Shown here: in pieces, positions 53,481 through 60,444 of the stretch | Numbering within the stretch: position 1 is the stretch's first letter | How the letters are laid out: the number at the start of each line of letters is the position of its first letter | Assembly (NCBI GenBank): GCA_034429995.1 | Contig: DAOUEZ010000007.1 | Location: 9,362-73,361, forward strand | Reading direction: 5' to 3' | Origin: Dehalococcoidia bacterium | GTDB lineage: Bacteria > Chloroflexota > Dehalococcoidia > SM23-28-2 | Length of the DNA stretch: 64,000 bases | The notes under the pieces: generated by a model | Told to the model about the DNA's origin: nothing | Databases searched by the model: none | Seen by the model: only the letters and a program-made list of their open reading frames with translations | Translations under genes and position numbers: made by a program

Positions 53481-55031
53481 ATGCGCAGCGTAAGAGCCAA
53501 AGCTGTTCTCTTACTCCTAGGAGGAGTGCTTTTCCTGGGCCTGGTGGCCCTGGCCTGGGCGATGAGTGCGGGCTCCTCCGAAGCCCAGCAGGGCGCTATG
53601 CACAACTGTCCCCAGGCGGGCAAGTGGGCAATATCAGTCTGGAGCGGCCAGGATGGGACCGACACAGGCGAGGCTCTGGCCACCTGCGGGACGGTACCGG
53701 TAACCGCTGCCTACTACATGGACCCCGAGAAGGGCTGGCTCGGCTACTTCGATGGGTTCACCGACATCAGCAACCTGCTGACGCTGAACGATAAGCAGGG
53801 AATCATCGCCCTGGGCTCTGCCCCAGCCACGCCGACGTCGCTGGCCATCCCTGGCGCTACCTACACAGGCACGACATCGCAGGACTTGCTCATCGAGTTC
53901 GAAGTGAGCGCCGACGGGTCGACCATAACGCGGCTCATATACAAGATCAGCGGCACTCTCCCAGGAGGGGGAACCTGCGACAGGTTCACCATCCCAACCG
54001 TGGACGCGCCCATCGAAGACAACAGCTTCTCCATTGCCCGCACCCTGTTCGACATGTCGGGGCACTTCGAAACCCAGTGGCAGGCGACAGGCGAGCTGAC
54101 TGTGCATGAACCCTACTCTGACGGCGTTCTGCCATGCAACGCAGGGCCTCTGACGTGGACGGCCACCGTCCCCTCGGCCACGCCGATGCCCACGCCGACG
54201 CCTCCATCAGGGCCAGGCCAACTGGCCAACTGCCCGCAGGCCGGCAAGTGGGCGATATCGGTGTGGGACGGCCCGAACGGCACCGAGACCGGCCAGGCCC
54301 TGGCCACCTGCGGGACGGTACCGGTAACCGCTGCCTACTACATGGACCCCGAGAAGGGCTGGCTCGGCTACTTCGCTGAGCACACCGACATCAGCAAGCT
54401 GCTGACGCTCGACTATCTGCAAGGGATCATCGTCCTCGGGGGTGCGGCTGCTCCGACGCCCACACCGACGGCCACGCCGGCGCCTGGGGTGCTTAGCGCT
54501 AAGGAGGGCTATCCTTTGGCCCTTCAAGTTGCCAGGGCGGGGCACCCGGATGCCTATCTCTACGAGGTTCAGAGCGGCTGCAATAGTGGCATATGGACCA
54601 GATGTTGGGAGTTTGAATATGACGATATGGCATCCGGGGATGGTCGAAGCACGTATTGGCGCTTCTCCTTCTACTTGCCGGGCGCCAACGAGGATGAGGC
54701 GGGTTTCATGGTGGACGTAGACCGAGGGCAGCCCAAAGAGGGCTACACTTTCGGATACCATGGTTCGGCTCCCACCCTACTGCCTTTGGAGGAGCTGATA
54801 GACAGCACGGAGGCCGTACAAATAGCAGATGCCCGCGGGGGGAGCGCTTACAAAGCGGCCAGTCCGGGCAACCAGCTATGCGGGGCCGAACTACGAAGAC
54901 GGGGAGGGAGGGGGTTCGAGTGGCAGATAGACTACTGTCCCCCGTTCGAGGAAGGAGGGATGGGGCTCGCGGTATATCTAGATGGCAGAACGGGCGAGCT
55001 GAACAAGACAGAGGAGCCCGAGTGGGGCTAG
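53481..55031 (+). CDS. Secreted multidomain protein with internally duplicated NCPQAGKWAISVW domain
   Basis: Signal peptide, RBS GGAGGT, two copies of a ~70-aa domain, PT linkers and a PepSY-like C-terminus (AVQIA...LDGRTGE). Confidence 0.8.
   Translation: MRSVRAKAVLLLLGGVLFLGLVALAWAMSAGSSEAQQGAMHNCPQAGKWAISVWSGQDGTDTGEALATCGTVPVTAAYYMDPEKGWLGYFDGFTDISNLLTLNDKQGIIALGSAPATPTSLAIPGATYTGTTSQDLLIEFEVSADGSTITRLIYKISGTLPGGGTCDRFTIPTVDAPIEDNSFSIARTLFDMSGHFETQWQATGELTVHEPYSDGVLPCNAGPLTWTATVPSATPMPTPTPPSGPGQLANCPQAGKWAISVWDGPNGTETGQALATCGTVPVTAAYYMDPEKGWLGYFAEHTDISKLLTLDYLQGIIVLGGAAAPTPTPTATPAPGVLSAKEGYPLALQVARAGHPDAYLYEVQSGCNSGIWTRCWEFEYDDMASGDGRSTYWRFSFYLPGANEDEAGFMVDVDRGQPKEGYTFGYHGSAPTLLPLEELIDSTEAVQIADARGGSAYKAASPGNQLCGAELRRRGGRGFEWQIDYCPPFEEGGMGLAVYLDGRTGELNKTEEPEWG
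53676..53751 (+). repeat. 76-bp exact direct repeat, copy 1
   Basis: Identical to 54300-54375 by manual comparison. Confidence 0.85.
54300..54375 (+). repeat. 76-bp exact direct repeat, copy 2
   Basis: Identical to 53676-53751. Confidence 0.85.
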
Positions 55032-55174
55032 TCCCCCTGGTTCCCCTCGCGTCTTCGCCATACGTGGTGGCGACCGTCCTGCGCGGGACGGTTAGCAGGC
55101 CATAGGCGCTGGCTGCGCGGCTAAAGTCGGCGGCTTCCTGTCGCTATAATGCCCTCGTGATGAACCACGCCGCC

Positions 55175-55191
55175 GAAGTCCGCCAGCGCCT
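55175..55191 (+). repeat. 17-bp direct repeat, left of the TA cassette
   Basis: GAAGTCCGCCAGCGCCT matches 55774-55790 at 16 of 17 positions. Confidence 0.75.
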
Positions 55192-55241
55192 TGTCGCTTT
55201 CCCGCCTTTGTGGTATTATGCTTTGGCGAGGGGTGATCAAC

Positions 55242-55481
55242 ATGGCACGAGAGCTAGCGCTGAATACCCGCATAACGGTTGACTTGGGCAATGCCGCCTT
55301 GTATCGCAGCGTCAAAGTCCTCTCCGCATATCAGGGCCGGGCGCTGCGGGACATTGTGGCCGAGGCGCTGAGGGAGTGGCTGGAGAAGCAGGAGGAGCTC
55401 GAGGACTTGCAGGAGTTCCTGGCGGCAGAAGGTGAGCCGGGGAGGCCTCTGCGGGAGATCATGGCTGAACCCGGCGAATGA
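55242..55481 (+). CDS. Ribbon-helix-helix antitoxin
   Basis: TRITVDL...LRDIVAEALREWLE followed by an acidic tail; stop overlaps the relE start (ATGA). Confidence 0.8.
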   Translation: MARELALNTRITVDLGNAALYRSVKVLSAYQGRALRDIVAEALREWLEKQEELEDLQEFLAAEGEPGRPLREIMAEPGE

Positions 55482-55747
55482 GCTCTCGCTAGGAGGTCGT
55501 CGTCCTCCGGCCGGCTGAGAAGGAGATCCGGCGACTCGCCCCAAAGATCCGTCGGCAGATACTTGAGAAGCTAGTCGGGCTGGAGACCAACCCTCGCCCG
55601 CAGGACGTGAGGCGTCTTCACGGGGTAGAGCGGGGCTACCGAGTGGATAGCGGTGAGTATCGAATCCTCTACGAGATCGACGACGCGGAAAGGCGGGCCG
55701 TTGTGCGCGTAGTCAAGCATCGCAAGGACGTCTACCGGAACCTTTGA
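55478..55747 (+). pseudogene. relE: RelE/ParE family toxin with premature TAG at codon 5
   Basis: Manual translation MSSR*EVVVLRPAEKEIRRL...NPRPQDVRRLHG...YRVDSGEYRILYEIDD...VKHRKDVYRNL; TAG at 55490-55492; missing from the ORF track. Confidence 0.82.
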
Positions 55748-55761
55748 GGTTGCATCTGGCT

Positions 55762-56814
55762 GTGCGTGAGTATGAGGTCCGCCAGCGCCTGGAGGAGCGC
55801 GAGTCGCTCCTCTCACCCTTCGCCGCCAGGAGCTGCGAATCGCGCGGGCGGGAGCGGCCGGAGGAGCCCTCGCCCCTGCGCACGGAGTTCCAGCGCGACC
55901 GCGACCGCATCATCCACTGCAAGGCCTTCCGCCGCCTGAAGCACAAGACGCAGGTGTTCATCGCCCCCGTGGGCGACCACTTCGTCACCCGCCTCACCCA
56001 CACCCTGGAGGTGGCCCAGATCGCCCGCACCATCGCCCGCGCCCTCAACCTGAACGAGGACCTGACGGAGGCCATCGCCCTGGGCCACGACCTGGGCCAT
56101 CCGCCCTTCGGCCACGCCGGCGAGGAGGCCCTGGCCGAGCTCCTGCCCGAGGGCTTCCGCCACGCCGAGCAGAGCCTGCGGGTTGTAGAGCGCCTGGAGA
56201 ACGGCGGCCATGGTCTCAACCTCACCTGGGAGGTGCGCGACGGCATCGTCAACAGCTCCAAGGGGCGGCAGGACATCCTGGCCGACACCCTCGGCATGCC
56301 GGCTACCCTGGAGGGACAGGTCGTGCGGCTGGCCGACGCCGTGGCCTACATCAATCACGACATCGCCGACGCCGTGCGGGCGGACATCCTGACCGAGGAG
56401 GAGCTGCCCGCCGCCGTGAGCGAAGCCCTGGGGCGCGGTCACTCCCAACGCATCAACACCCTGGTGTGCGACATCGTCGACCACTCGTGGGCGGCGACCG
56501 GCCTGGTAGCGAGCGAAGCCTCTCCCCGCATCGGCATGGGGCCATCCATCGAGAAAGCGGCCAACGCCCTGCGGGAGTTCCTCTTCCAGCGGGTCTACCT
56601 GTGGGAGGACAGGCAAGGAGAGGTAGAGCAGGCCAAACGAGTGGTGCGTTTCCTGTTCCAATATTATGTGGAGCGGCCGCAGCAGATCGATAGCGACTTC
56701 CTGATTTCGTCGGACCCACCCTGGCGCCAGGCAGCCGATTACGTCGCCGGCATGACCGACCTGTTCGCCCTGAATACGGCCGCCCGCCTGGGCTTCAGAG
56801 AGGAAAGGCTATGA
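55762..56814 (+). CDS. dgt: Deoxyguanosinetriphosphate triphosphohydrolase-like protein
   Basis: FQRDRDRIIH, FRRLKHKTQVF, TRLTHTLEV, GHDLGHPPFGHAGE, DYVAGMTD. Start uncertain (55744, 55750 or 55762). Confidence 0.93.
   Translation: MREYEVRQRLEERESLLSPFAARSCESRGRERPEEPSPLRTEFQRDRDRIIHCKAFRRLKHKTQVFIAPVGDHFVTRLTHTLEVAQIARTIARALNLNEDLTEAIALGHDLGHPPFGHAGEEALAELLPEGFRHAEQSLRVVERLENGGHGLNLTWEVRDGIVNSSKGRQDILADTLGMPATLEGQVVRLADAVAYINHDIADAVRADILTEEELPAAVSEALGRGHSQRINTLVCDIVDHSWAATGLVASEASPRIGMGPSIEKAANALREFLFQRVYLWEDRQGEVEQAKRVVRFLFQYYVERPQQIDSDFLISSDPPWRQAADYVAGMTDLFALNTAARLGFREERL
55774..55790 (+). repeat. 17-bp direct repeat, right of the TA cassette (inside the dgt 5' end)
   Basis: GAGGTCCGCCAGCGCCT. 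Confidence 0.75.
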
Positions 56815-56969: not shown

Positions 56970-58865
56970 ATGAGCGTCGTCGATGAGGTGAAGCAGCGGC
57001 TGGACATAGTGGACGTCGTGGGCCAGTATGTCCAGCTCCAGAAGGCAGGCCGCAACTTCAAGGCCATCTGCCCCTTCCACAGCGAGCGCACGCCGTCTTT
57101 CTTCGTCTCGCCGGAAAGGCAGAGCTGGCACTGTTTCGGCGCCTGCGGCACCGGCGGCGACATCTTCTCCTTCGTGATGAAGAAGGAGAACCTGGAGTTC
57201 GTCGAGGCCCTGCGCCTATTGGCCGAGCGGGCGGGAGTGACGCTAGCGGAGCGGCGACCGGAGGAGGAAGCCAAAAGGGATAGGCTGCGGGAGGCCAATG
57301 AGGCCGCTGCCCGGTTCTACCATCGGGCGCTTCTGTCTAGCGAAGCGGGACAAACGGCAAGGCGGTACCTCGAGGAGCGCGACCTGGACCTGAAGACGAT
57401 CCAGGACTTTCAGCTTGGCTACAGCCTCAGCGGCTGGGATAGCCTCTGCCAGCATCTCAGGGAGCGTGGCTATGGCGATGAGGAGCTGGTGGCGGCTGGT
57501 CTGGCCGTCGAGGGGGAGCGGGGTCTGCGCGACCTCTTCCATCAGCGCCTCATGTTCCCGATCACCGATATGCGAGGGCGGGTGGTAGGCTTCGGTGGCC
57601 GCTCGCTGCCCATCGAGGGGCAGGAGGAAGCTCAGCCCAAGTATTTGAACACACCCCAGACAGCCATTTTCGACAAAGGCAGCCTCCTGTACGCCCTGGA
57701 CAAGGCGAGGGAGCACATCCGCCGCCAGGGTTTGGCAGTGATTGTGGAGGGATACACGGACGCCATCGCCGCCCATCAGCACGGCTTCCCTAATGTGGTG
57801 GCCTCCATGGGGACAGCCCTCAGCGAGCGCCAGGTACGCCTCCTGAAGCGTTTCAGCCGTGATGTCGTTCTGGCATTGGACGCTGATACCGCCGGTCAGG
57901 AGGCAACACTGCGGGCAGTGGAATACCAGGACATACTGGGACGGGACATCCGAGTGGTCATTCTCCCTCAGGGCCGCGATCCCGACCAGGTGATTCGAAG
58001 CGATCCAGAAGCCTGGCCAGCCCTGCTGGAGGACGCCCAGCCGCTGCTCGACTACAAGTTCGAGGCGGTGAGCTCCGCCCTCGACCTCTCCCAGCCGCGG
58101 CAACGCTCACAGGCGGTGGACGAGCTCCTGCCCCTGCTGGCAGCCATCGGCGATAAGATTGTGCAGGCCCATTACTTGCAGCGGCTGGCCCGCCTGGCTC
58201 AGGTCAGGGAATCGGCCCTGCATCAGATGCTCCTTCGCCAGGGGCGTAAGCAAGGGCGCAGCAGAGAGGCGGCTGCCGAGGGAGAGACCGTAGCAGAAGT
58301 CAGGCCTCTGCGGGACGTGCCGGAAGAACATTGCCTCGAACTCCTTCTGCGTTACCCGGAGCTGAGAAACGAGGGATTGGCTCTCTCACTCGACCTGTTC
58401 TGGCAGACGGAGAACCGCGAGCTGCTCCAGCTCTGGCAGCGAGCGGTCGACCTAGAGGAACTGGCGCAGCTGATCCCTTCGGAGCTGAAAGAGCACCTTC
58501 AGCGCTTGAGCGGGGCACCGCTGCCGCCCTTCCCACCCGAGCTAGCGCTTGAGCGTCTGCGGGGGTCTATCGGCAGTCTGAAGAAGCGGGAAGTCCGCCA
58601 GGCGAAGGAGCTTACAGGCGCCGCCCTGGCCGCTCGGGAAGAGGAGGGGGGCCCGACCGGCGCCGAAGAGCTGGCAGCGGCTGCTCAGGCCTCGCGCTCT
58701 GGCTCGCCGCCCGAGGAAATTGGGTCGCGAGAGGTATCGCAGACGACCGCCCTGCTCCTGAAGGATATGGAAATAGGCATAAGACTGCATCGAAGTAGTA
58801 AAATAGAGATGGGTGATGATCAGGACTTTGCGGACAACGGCCCCGAGGTGGAAGTGAATGACTGA
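56970..58865 (+). CDS. dnaG: DNA primase
   Basis: [11 protein letters not shown]...[31 protein letters not shown]. Confidence 0.97.
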
Positions 58866-60444
58866 TCCCTCGGAGAAGGGGAATCGATTTCAGGATTTCC
58901 TGTTTCGCCGCAAGCGAGCGCGGCGGGACGCCGCCGACGACCGTTTCGAGGAGCTAGACGAATCGGAAGTGGATGAGGAGTTTGTGGAGAAGAAGGTGGA
59001 TCGGCTGTTGAGTGAGGAAGAAGAGGACGTCGTCGAACAGAAGGAAGGGCCCCTACCTCGTCTGACCCGCCAGGTACCGCTCGCGCTGGGGGAGTGGGCA
59101 GAGACTAGGGCAGCCGGCAAGCTGAAGAGAAAGGAAGGGGTCGAGGTTGACCTAGAGCTGGGCGAGCAGGAAGGCATCGACGACCCCGTACGGATGTATC
59201 TCCGCGAGATCGGCAAGGTGCATCTCCTTACCGCCCAGGATGAGAAGCGGCTTGCCCGCCAAATGGAGGATGGCAAGCATATTCAGCGTCTCGAGAAGAA
59301 CTGGCAGGAGATCAACGGCCAGCCACCCACGGCGGCGGACGTGATGGTCGCTCTCCTAGAGGAGGTGCATCGTCTCTGCCCTGTCAAGGATGTGGTGGTT
59401 AAGCGTTTGGGTCTCAAGCGGCTCCCCCTGGCTCGTCTCATTGGCGAACCCGCTTTCCGCCAGACCGTGGACGGAGAGATCGACCAGGAGCTAGCTGCCC
59501 ACGTGCAGGAGAGCCTTTCCATTGAGCGGACGGAGGCGGAGCGCTCGCTGGTTCGCCTGTCCATCGTCACCCACATTCTCACGCCAGAGCTCGTGGCTCT
59601 GGCCATGGTGGCTAGCGGCAGCGAGAAGGTTCTTCTGCCGCCCAAGGGGGACCTGAATGAGAAGCTGTCTCACTACGAGGAGCGCTTTCGCAGCCACTTC
59701 TTGAAGATCAAGGACGATGGCTTCAGGGGTGAGAAGCGGCTGACCGAGGCCAACCTACGCCTAGTGGTCAGCGTAGCCAAGAAGTACATCGGACGGGGTA
59801 TGTCTCTGCTGGACCTCATCCAGGAGGGCAACATCGGCCTCATCCGGGCGGTGGAGAAGTTCGACTACCGCAAGGGATACAAATTCAGCACCTACGCTAC
59901 CTGGTGGATCCGTCAGGCCATCACCCGCGCTATCGCCGACCAGGCGCGCACCATCCGCATCCCTGTGCACATGGTGGAGACGATCAACAAGCTGGTGCGA
60001 GTGAGCCGCCGCCTGGTGCAGGAGTACGGTCGTGAACCCACCAGCAAGGAGGTCGGCTCCGATATGGAGATAACGCCCGAGAAGGTGCGGGAGGTCATTA
60101 AGGTCTCCCAGGAGCCGGTATCCCTGGAGACACCCATCGGTGAGGAGGAGGATAGTCACCTGGGCGATTTCATCGAGGACCACGGCACCCCCGCTCCCGC
60201 TGACGCTGCCTCGCATCAACTCCTCAAGGAGCAGGTGTCCGATGTGCTCTCGTCTCTTACCCCCCGCGAGAAGAAGGTGCTAATCCTGCGCTTCGGGCTG
60301 GAGGACGGGCGCAGCCGTACCCTGGAAGAGGTGGGGCGGGAGTTCAGCGTCACCCGTGAGCGCATCCGCCAGATCGAGGCCAAAGCCCTGCGCAAGCTGC
60401 GCCACCCCTCGCGCAGCAAGAAGCTTAAGGACTATCTGGAGTAG
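58858..60444 (+). CDS. rpoD: RNA polymerase primary sigma factor
   Basis: [63 protein letters not shown]. Confidence 0.97.

Follow-up and report, generated by a model that had tools for sequence, protein, structure and literature searches.

Toxin–antitoxin (TA) pairs are among the most mobile prokaryotic genes, and the movement of solitary chromosomal pairs without a mobility gene is poorly documented. In E. coli, phage 21 and e14 insert into a protein gene, icd, in an integrase-driven manner and carry a replacement for the gene end. In Neisseria, the minimal mobile elements (MMEs) are exchanged by homologous recombination between conserved flanking genes. For restriction–modification (R-M) units, an "insertion with long target duplication" has been described (Nobusato et al. 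2000, cited as reference 37 in Furuta, Abe and Kobayashi 2010, Nucleic Acids Res 38:2428, PMC2853133); the criterion given for it there is a duplication of variable length that exceeds 30 bp (PMC2853133). Here, we examined a whole stretch of 64,000 nt (referred to as the window hereafter) from a Dehalococcoidia bacterium, in which a predicted TA cassette of about 0.6 kb lies in the 5′ end of dgt, the gene for dGTP triphosphohydrolase. The source of the window is a metagenome-assembled genome (MAG) of 1.96 Mb in 45 contigs, designated G000. It is probable that the cassette came into dgt by a recombinase-free insertion with long target duplication, and that it was then exchanged between species by host recombination.

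The dgt cassette and the R-M units with long target duplications have several properties in common: each is an addiction-type unit without transposase or integrase, the flanking direct repeats are variable (tens to hundreds of base pairs), and both repeats align to a single copy in an insert-free genome. The dgt cassette differs from the R-M units, however, in its cargo, which is a TA pair, and in its target, which is the 5′ coding end of a gene in an essential operon, where the right repeat supplies the working start codon. It also differs in that the left copy in G000 is trimmed to 17 nt, below the 30-bp criterion (relatives keep 44 or 92 nt, and a related cassette at a trpG gene has 47 and 52 nt), and in that dozens of lineages have this cassette at the one site, where evidence of exchange between species is seen. 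Like the chromosomal type II ParDE/RelBE modules, the cassette has an antitoxin-first operon, an ATGA overlap, its own promoter, a toxin of the ParE/RelE fold and a patchy distribution. Unlike them, it has an antitoxin that stays below the threshold of every curated family, and it is located inside a coding start instead of an intergenic region; this layout hints at the mode of insertion, which is usually lacking in descriptions of chromosomal TA loci.

As in the icd-type elements, the insert brings the terminal codons of its target, the gene stays functional, and the displaced end is left as a nearby pseudo-copy. Those elements, however, are 20–40 kb long and have their own integrase and a fixed att core, whereas the dgt cassette is 0.6 kb long, has no recombinase that could be found, shows a variable duplication and replaces the 5′ end. 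As with the MMEs, alternative cassettes or none (ParDE A, ParDE B, HicBA, empty) occur at one site and are swapped between related species; the MMEs show no duplication of the flanking genes, whereas a repeat that stems from the target gene delimits the block exchanged at the dgt site. A literature search for TA cassettes flanked by duplicated gene ends returned only papers on integrative and conjugative elements, integrative and mobilizable elements, and transposons, and the R-M analogue was found under the term "long target duplication". The dgt locus extends this R-M route to cassettes of the TA type and to a target at the 5′ end of a housekeeping gene. It provides an unusually complete natural series (empty, fresh-looking with 92 nt, worn with 44 or 17 nt, alternative cassettes, toxin decay), in which the insert takes over the start codon of dgt and probably its transcription too.

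The features of the locus are listed below, with the basis of each assignment in parentheses.

55145–55150, + strand: TATAAT, the putative −10 box of the native dgt, stranded 5′ of the cassette (seen in the sequence).
55157–55191, + strand: the stub, that is, the displaced native dgt start (orthologous to the working starts of empty alleles).
55175–55191, + strand: R-left, the left direct-repeat copy (repeat search and alignment of duplications).
55191–55219, + strand: predicted cassette promoter, TTGTCG-17-nt spacer-TATTAT, with TG before the −10 box (consensus and conservation).
55242–55481, + strand: antitoxin gene, 79 amino acids (aa), ribbon-helix-helix (RHH)/ParD-like (weak homologue hits and operon layout).
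55478–55747, + strand: toxin gene of the ParE/RelE family, with an amber codon at codon 5 (PF05016, 36.6 bits).
55748–55761, + strand: 14-nt spacer GGTTGCATCTGGCT at the right end of the cassette (aligned among relatives).
55762–56814, + strand: dgt, working copy, for dGTP triphosphohydrolase (NF002327, HD and HD_assoc domains).
55774–55790, + strand: R-right, the right direct-repeat copy (repeat search and alignment of duplications).
56970–60444, + strand: dnaG and rpoD, 3′ of dgt (Pfam primase and sigma-70 domains).

The two repeat copies, GAAGTCCGCCAGCGCCT (55175–55191) and GAGGTCCGCCAGCGCCT (55774–55790), agree at 16 of 17 positions with an exact core of 14 nt; they are spaced by 599 nt and read in the same frame. 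A first-pass annotation of the window had pointed out this in-frame EVRQRL match, together with the TATAAT box, the GTG/ATG that opens MNHAAEVRQRL and the dgt opening VREYEVRQRL. The match was confirmed by the repeat search, and the other elements all lie where they had been placed. The codons of the stub are GTG ATG AAC CAC GCC GCC GAA GTC CGC CAG CGC CT, i.e., (M)MNHAAEVRQRL, with the GTG at 55157 and the ATG at 55160, and read-through of the stub gives a meaningless 41-aa open reading frame (ORF) ending at 55282. The first codons of the working dgt are GTG CGT GAG TAT GAG GTC (VREYEV); from the GTG at 55762, V-R-E-Y-E-V-R-Q-R-L is read, and the opening as a whole reads VREYEVRQRLEERE. When pairs of 17-mers with one mismatch or less and 300–1500 nt apart were counted in triplet shuffles of the window, about 0.8 such pairs occurred per 64 kb, which corresponds to about 0.01–0.02 for one 1.2-kb spot. 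Thus, the repeat by itself is suggestive but not decisive, and the comparative evidence decides.

We searched for dgt in 40 related genomes, and then the DNA upstream of each hit was read. No cassette was present in five genomes of the same genus (G001, G002, G004, G006 and G007), and in these the dgt gene starts with MSHEADVRQRL, MGHQHDVGARL, MGHEVDVRQRL, MAHASDVRQRL and MRHDVDVRQRL, respectively, giving the consensus M-x-H-x-x-D-V-[RG]-[QA]-R-L-E-E-R-E. Directly 5′ of each of these starts, TA[CG][AG]AT-N6-GTGATG is found, with a degenerate box, TAGGAC, in G001; this is the layout of the window stub. Furthermore, when the window flanks 55130–55191 and 55791–55900 were joined, they aligned to the five empty alleles without a gap and encoded MNHAAEVRQRLEERESLLSPF. 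Since the joined flanks are collinear with the empty alleles, the stub is the promoter and start that dgt originally had, and the gene is interrupted by the cassette within its first codons. The start of dgt in relatives without the TA pair had been set beforehand, in the first-pass annotation, as the refuting test; the upstream-type start is what all five same-genus relatives have. The claim that a cassette of about 600 bp entered the dgt start with neither transposase nor integrase is thus supported by the empty alleles, by the joined flanks and by the finding of no mobility gene. The spacing of the stranded −10 box suggests that the native dgt would have been transcribed into a leaderless mRNA.

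The insertion is not private to G000: it is also found in G008, G011, G012 and about 20 metagenomic lineages. A homologous cassette occurs at the same place in G008, which belongs to the same genus, and in two further genera of the family, represented by G011 and G012. When metagenome contigs were scanned with the antitoxin alignment, 30 loci were obtained, and dgt lies 3′ of the cassette in every one of those that reach downstream (about 20). The antitoxin is single-copy and located at dgt only (41 related genomes searched), and these genomes hold no second copy of the cassette. As the same junction recurs in independent assemblies, it is unlikely that the window anatomy arose from a chimeric assembly.

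Based on the position at which the stub ends, the loci can be grouped into three classes.

Class 1: stub end at codon 11, 14–17 nt of duplication left (G000, G008, L070–L075, L078, L088, L094 and L095).
Class 2: stub end at codon 17, 44 nt of duplication left, 39–40 of 44 identical (L084–L087 and L096–L098).
Class 3: stub end at about codon 35, 92 nt of duplication left, 82 of 92 identical (L076 and L077).

The duplications were measured as 92 nt in L077, 44 nt in L085 and L086, and 14–17 nt in G000, G008, L070–L072 and L074; the stub of G011 is long but decayed. In the stubs of all three classes, TA[CGT][AG]AT is located 6 nt before GTGATG, and AGCG[GC]CT followed by TG forms the end. In every class, too, the right-hand copy begins at the dgt start codon, 14–18 nt past the toxin stop. 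It starts with ATG CAT GAG CTC GAT GTC (MHELDV) in L077, with VHESEV in L085 and with VREYEV in G000; since these are homologous, the dgt start in the window is a diverged right-hand copy of the native start. The first-pass annotation had described a duplicated gene start. The duplication itself is real, but the 17 nt are not the whole of it, for relatives keep 44 and 92 nt; the alignments indicate that the 17-nt repeat of the window is the best-preserved core of a duplication of at least 92 nt originally.

The history of the cassette was compared with that of the hosts. In the RpoB tree, the filled G008 is sister to the empty G006 (Shimodaira–Hasegawa-like approximate likelihood-ratio test, SH-aLRT, 90), and G000 falls among the empty G001 and G002. 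The filled and empty alleles are likewise interleaved in a dgt DNA tree including the metagenomic loci. Two alleles of the toxin/antitoxin interface, types A and B, can be distinguished, and they cross the genus lines: type A is found in G000 and G011, and type B in G008 and G012, while L078 is a mosaic of the two. For the divergence comparison, we used seven class-1, type-A loci (G000 and L070–L075), six of which were also subjected to a sliding-window analysis. The antitoxin and toxin genes of the seven loci are 96–98% identical against 87–93% for the adjoining dgt, and the identity at third codon positions is 91–100% in the cassette against 72–84% in dgt. In the sliding window, the upstream DNA cannot be aligned; the mean pairwise identity is 76–79% in the stub, rises to 93–100% in the cassette (about 55209 to 55780) and falls to 82–86% just 3′ of R-right. 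The stub codons 2–6 are host-specific (NHAAE, GHEAD, SHVVD, NHAAD, AHASD and others), and the cassette is not. Since the near-invariant identity stops at the two repeat copies and the stubs are host-specific, these copies bound a recently shared block; since, in addition, the cassette is less diverged than dgt, the cassette moves between species, and its flanks do not.

A different relation is seen between G000 and G008, which belong to one genus: dgt is 90–92% identical between them, the N-terminal part of the antitoxin 84%, and the antitoxin C-terminus with the toxin N-terminus 48–53%. There was no sign that the dgt flank had been carried along with the cassette between these two genomes, as dgt of G008 resembles that of its sister G006 throughout. 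Taken together, the comparisons show that the cassette and its host have separate histories, and they indicate that cassettes have repeatedly been exchanged laterally or replaced at this single site.

Mobility genes and repeats of other kinds were also searched for. The three ORFs immediately 5′ of the stub gave no Pfam match, and the insert holds the two TA genes only. A repeat search of the window found no inverted repeat pairing the cassette ends. No recombinase was found in or beside the cassette among the approximately 35 loci examined, and a trans-acting recombinase was not searched for genome-wide. The direct repeats consist of target-gene sequence and are not cassette-borne sites, and no integrase is located nearby. 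An insertion sequence, a miniature inverted-repeat transposable element or another transposon was rejected, because terminal inverted repeats are missing and the duplications range from 17 to 92 nt. For the 17-nt repeat as a clean target-site duplication of the transposase type, the 44-nt and 92-nt copies in relatives rule it out.

Related layouts were found with other cassettes and at another gene. In L043 (690–2130), from another Dehalococcoidia MAG, the 3′ end of a trpG/pabA-type gene for a class-I glutamine amidotransferase harbours a 56%-identical antitoxin and a ParE toxin. This ParDE cassette is located between 47-nt copies (41 of 47 identical) of the trpG/pabA gene end with a spacing of 601 nt, and directly behind it follows a nested RHH-MazF cassette, for which the flanking duplication of 52 nt (90%) includes the 3′ end of the ParE gene. 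No core motif convincingly shared by the dgt repeat and the L043 repeat at trpG was seen. It was also observed that a third, partial copy of the repeat in L043 forms the start of the next ORF.

At dgt itself, the minus strand of a G010 contig (L033, 1–340; G010:C142) carries a dgt stub of 40 codons with a −10 box, a frameshift and a stop, followed by the promoter TGTGCTAGTAT and a HicB-like gene truncated by the contig end. A second type of TA cassette thus occupies the dgt docking site, with a longer duplication of about 120 nt. In L081 (800–1260) and L083 (280–830), a HicB-like/HicA pair (HicA PF07927, 57 bits) takes the place of the 3′ end of parD and of parE, and in L080 (1800–2310) the N-terminus of a HicB-like protein is fused in frame to ParE from residue 6. 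The variants L080, L081, L083 and L089 (1800–2000) belong to a G011-like clade.

As for the mechanism, the insertion would duplicate the dgt start through host recombination, the cassette having no recombinase of its own. In a Campbell-type model, a circle consisting of the cassette and one copy of the dgt start would be released by recombination between both copies in a donor. This model would account for the right copy that begins at the start codon, for the host-specific stubs and for the shared block that ends at the repeat. Copies of 92 nt would be within the reach of RecA, and the 14–17 nt left in G000 would make recombination rare; excision through the repeats is plausible, and with this remaining identity it should be a rare event. 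The upstream copy would later be shortened by small deletions at AGCG[GC]CT microrepeats, resulting in the 17-nt repeat, and cassettes of types A and B would be exchanged by recombination in or next to the repeats. No promoter belonging to dgt itself is located behind the cassette. Transcription of dgt presumably starts at the cassette promoter and also reaches the gene by read-through from the stranded −10 promoter.

We put forward only tentatively a wider proposal, which is possible but remains doubtful at present: in this Chloroflexota family, the leaderless 5′ end of dgt may be a dedicated docking site for recombinase-free cassettes (ParDE A, ParDE B and HicBA) whose sole integration machinery would be the first 11–40 or so codons of dgt that they carry. 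As circles, the cassettes would enter and leave the site through host recombination and pass from species to species; the wear of the upstream copy would gradually lock a cassette in place, and, together with similar layouts at other gene ends, these cassettes would represent a general, unnamed class of self-targeting addiction cassettes.

Several alternatives to the recombinase-free insertion followed by exchange have to be weighed. That a TA pair lies in an ordinary intergenic region, with the 16/17 match and the upstream start arising by chance, might find some support in the frequency of comparable 17-mer pairs in the shuffles; but base-by-base orthology links the stub to the promoter and start found in five empty alleles, and the same duplication is kept at 44 and 92 nt in relatives, so that this explanation is refuted and has next to no probability. 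More serious is site-specific integration, in which the repeat would be the att core of a small integrative or mobilizable element, or of a remnant of one, served by a tyrosine or serine recombinase encoded elsewhere. The target is always the dgt start, even in a second family (L093, see below), the insert is flanked by direct repeats, and two different cassettes, ParDE and HicBA, share the site; moreover, integrase-driven prophages are known to carry a replacement copy of the end of their target gene. We nevertheless regard this explanation as unlikely: a recombinase is missing in and beside the cassette, the duplicated length is variable (17, 44, 92 and about 120 nt) without a fixed core, and the repeat of the trpG cassette is unrelated and made of trpG sequence. 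The cassette is not a ragged remnant of a larger island either, because the unit is about 0.6 kb everywhere (spacings of 599 and 601 nt). It is likewise quite unlikely that one ancient insertion in the ancestor of the family was inherited vertically, the empty alleles being precise deletions between the repeats and the conservation a result of selection. In accordance with such a descent, all three genera of the family and both sub-clades of the genus include filled alleles, the stub classes are largely clade-specific, and the inter-genus identity of types A and B is about host-like (63–73% and 76–86%, respectively, against 78–87% for dgt). However, protein-level selection cannot explain the high third-position identity of the cassette relative to dgt in the same pairs, the cassettes of G000 and G008 are more diverged than their dgt genes, and at least four or five independent precise losses through 14–17-nt repeats would be needed.

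Some points weigh against the recombinase-free insertion and subsequent exchange, or against parts of this explanation. The main rival for the mechanism is a trans-acting recombinase encoded elsewhere in the genome; we give it a low probability, because the repeat length varies and the repeats are target-derived and not shared. The low divergence of the cassette could reflect the overwriting of resident cassettes by crossovers inside the cassette ends, and not new integration at the repeat. The series of junctions fits one eroding long duplication and several independent insertions at AGCG[GC]CT microhomologies equally well. The empty alleles may be either ancestral or secondary losses, and the stub is orthologous to the native start in either case. 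Consensus and conservation are the sole basis of the putative promoter and leaderless-start assignments. No metagenomic locus among the 30 belongs to the species of G000, the closest being 92% identical; L088 is the only one that matches a reference genome (G008, 99%). Finally, in L093, a lineage whose dgt groups with another family, the cassette abuts the ATG of dgt and a stub is undetectable, so that not every insertion shows a duplication. Either the same target received an independent insertion here, or the insertion is completely eroded. In L093 (2300–3120), the cassette is type-B-like and lies between an upstream terminator hairpin and the dgt ATG; the toxin TGA is one base before this ATG, and a −10 box is absent.

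The locus in the window is a self-contained cassette predicted to be a type II TA system, with its own promoter, an RHH/ParD-like antitoxin, a ParE/RelE toxin and a 14-nt tail. The −35 box of the predicted promoter touches the left junction. This promoter is the sole sigma-70-like site in 55000–55900, where shuffles give an expectation of 0.0, and it is conserved in all cassette-bearing loci. The antitoxin gene comes first and is co-oriented with the toxin gene, and its TGA stop overlaps the toxin ATG at 55478 (ATGA). The antitoxin gave no Pfam match at E ≤ 0.01. Sub-threshold matches to ParD and Antitox_RHH were obtained for four of the four aligned antitoxin homologues (best E = 0.0017), and the score against the RelB-like family was 16.5 bits with a cut-off of 50. 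For the toxin, PF05016 (ParE_toxin) scored 36.6 bits against a gathering score of 23 and covered profile positions 3–88 of 89, and NCBIfam RelE_StbE scored 15 bits with a cut-off of 27.9. The 14-nt spacer is homologous in G008, G011 and L077; among six aligned class-1, type-A species, it has two variable sites near its 3′ end and is otherwise invariant. The GAGG that overlaps the toxin stop may serve dgt as a ribosome-binding site. The dgt product scores 492 bits with NF002327 (cut-off 393) and contains PF01966 and PF13286.

The cassette of G000 appears to be decaying, with a dead toxin and an intact antitoxin. The toxin frame reads MSSR*EVVVLRP..., with an in-frame TAG at 55490–55492, and the neighbouring gene, which ends at 55031, uses TAG as its normal stop. 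Codon 5 is TAC in six relatives, and the C-to-G change is private to G000, the surrounding 30 nt being otherwise identical. The next in-frame start, the GTG at 55607, would leave 46 aa. Since the TAG occurs at codon 5 and the frame is intact in the six related cassettes, the toxin gene of the window is a pseudogene of a ParE/RelE family member, and the amber codon would remove the addiction barrier to loss of the cassette. Chromosomal TA loci usually decay toxin first with the antitoxin retained, and the G000 cassette matches this course; the chromosomal ccdO157 of E. coli, according to Mine et al. in 2009, reportedly decays in the same order with the antitoxin kept. In L089 and L090, the toxin gene is deleted and the antitoxin gene adjoins dgt.

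The upstream surroundings of the stub show some additional features. At 55104–55113, 68 nt 5′ of R-left, there is a perfect inverted copy of 10 nt of the repeat core (AGGCGCTGGC and GCCAGCGCCT), which is probably due to chance, because the upstream regions are not conserved in relatives. The gene at 53481–55031, 5′ of the stub, encodes a secreted protein and contains an internal duplication spaced by 624 nt with a long identical stretch. The copy number and arrangement of this secreted-protein gene family vary widely between relatives (the upstream regions of L070–L097). In L087, secreted-protein genes separate the antitoxin gene from dgt, and in L097 an extra dgt stub (1098–1184) lies between two of them.

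Caution is called for in annotation, as a short pseudo-start upstream of a conserved gene, or an odd N-terminus of its product, can be the scar of such an insertion. In G003 (L008, G003:C64), the first 30 or so codons of dgt are swapped for unrelated sequence near a contig end, as a result either of rearrangement at the same hotspot or of misassembly there. In G006, a second, decayed 5′ stub of dgt (L031, 2616–2720; G006:C1:2152115–2152219), with about 40 codons and one TAG, was found approximately 500 kb from the empty dgt site. It is located between two secreted-protein genes and is followed by a promoter-like remnant that resembles the promoter of the HicB cassette in G010. This second stub may be a relic of an older insertion split off by rearrangement.

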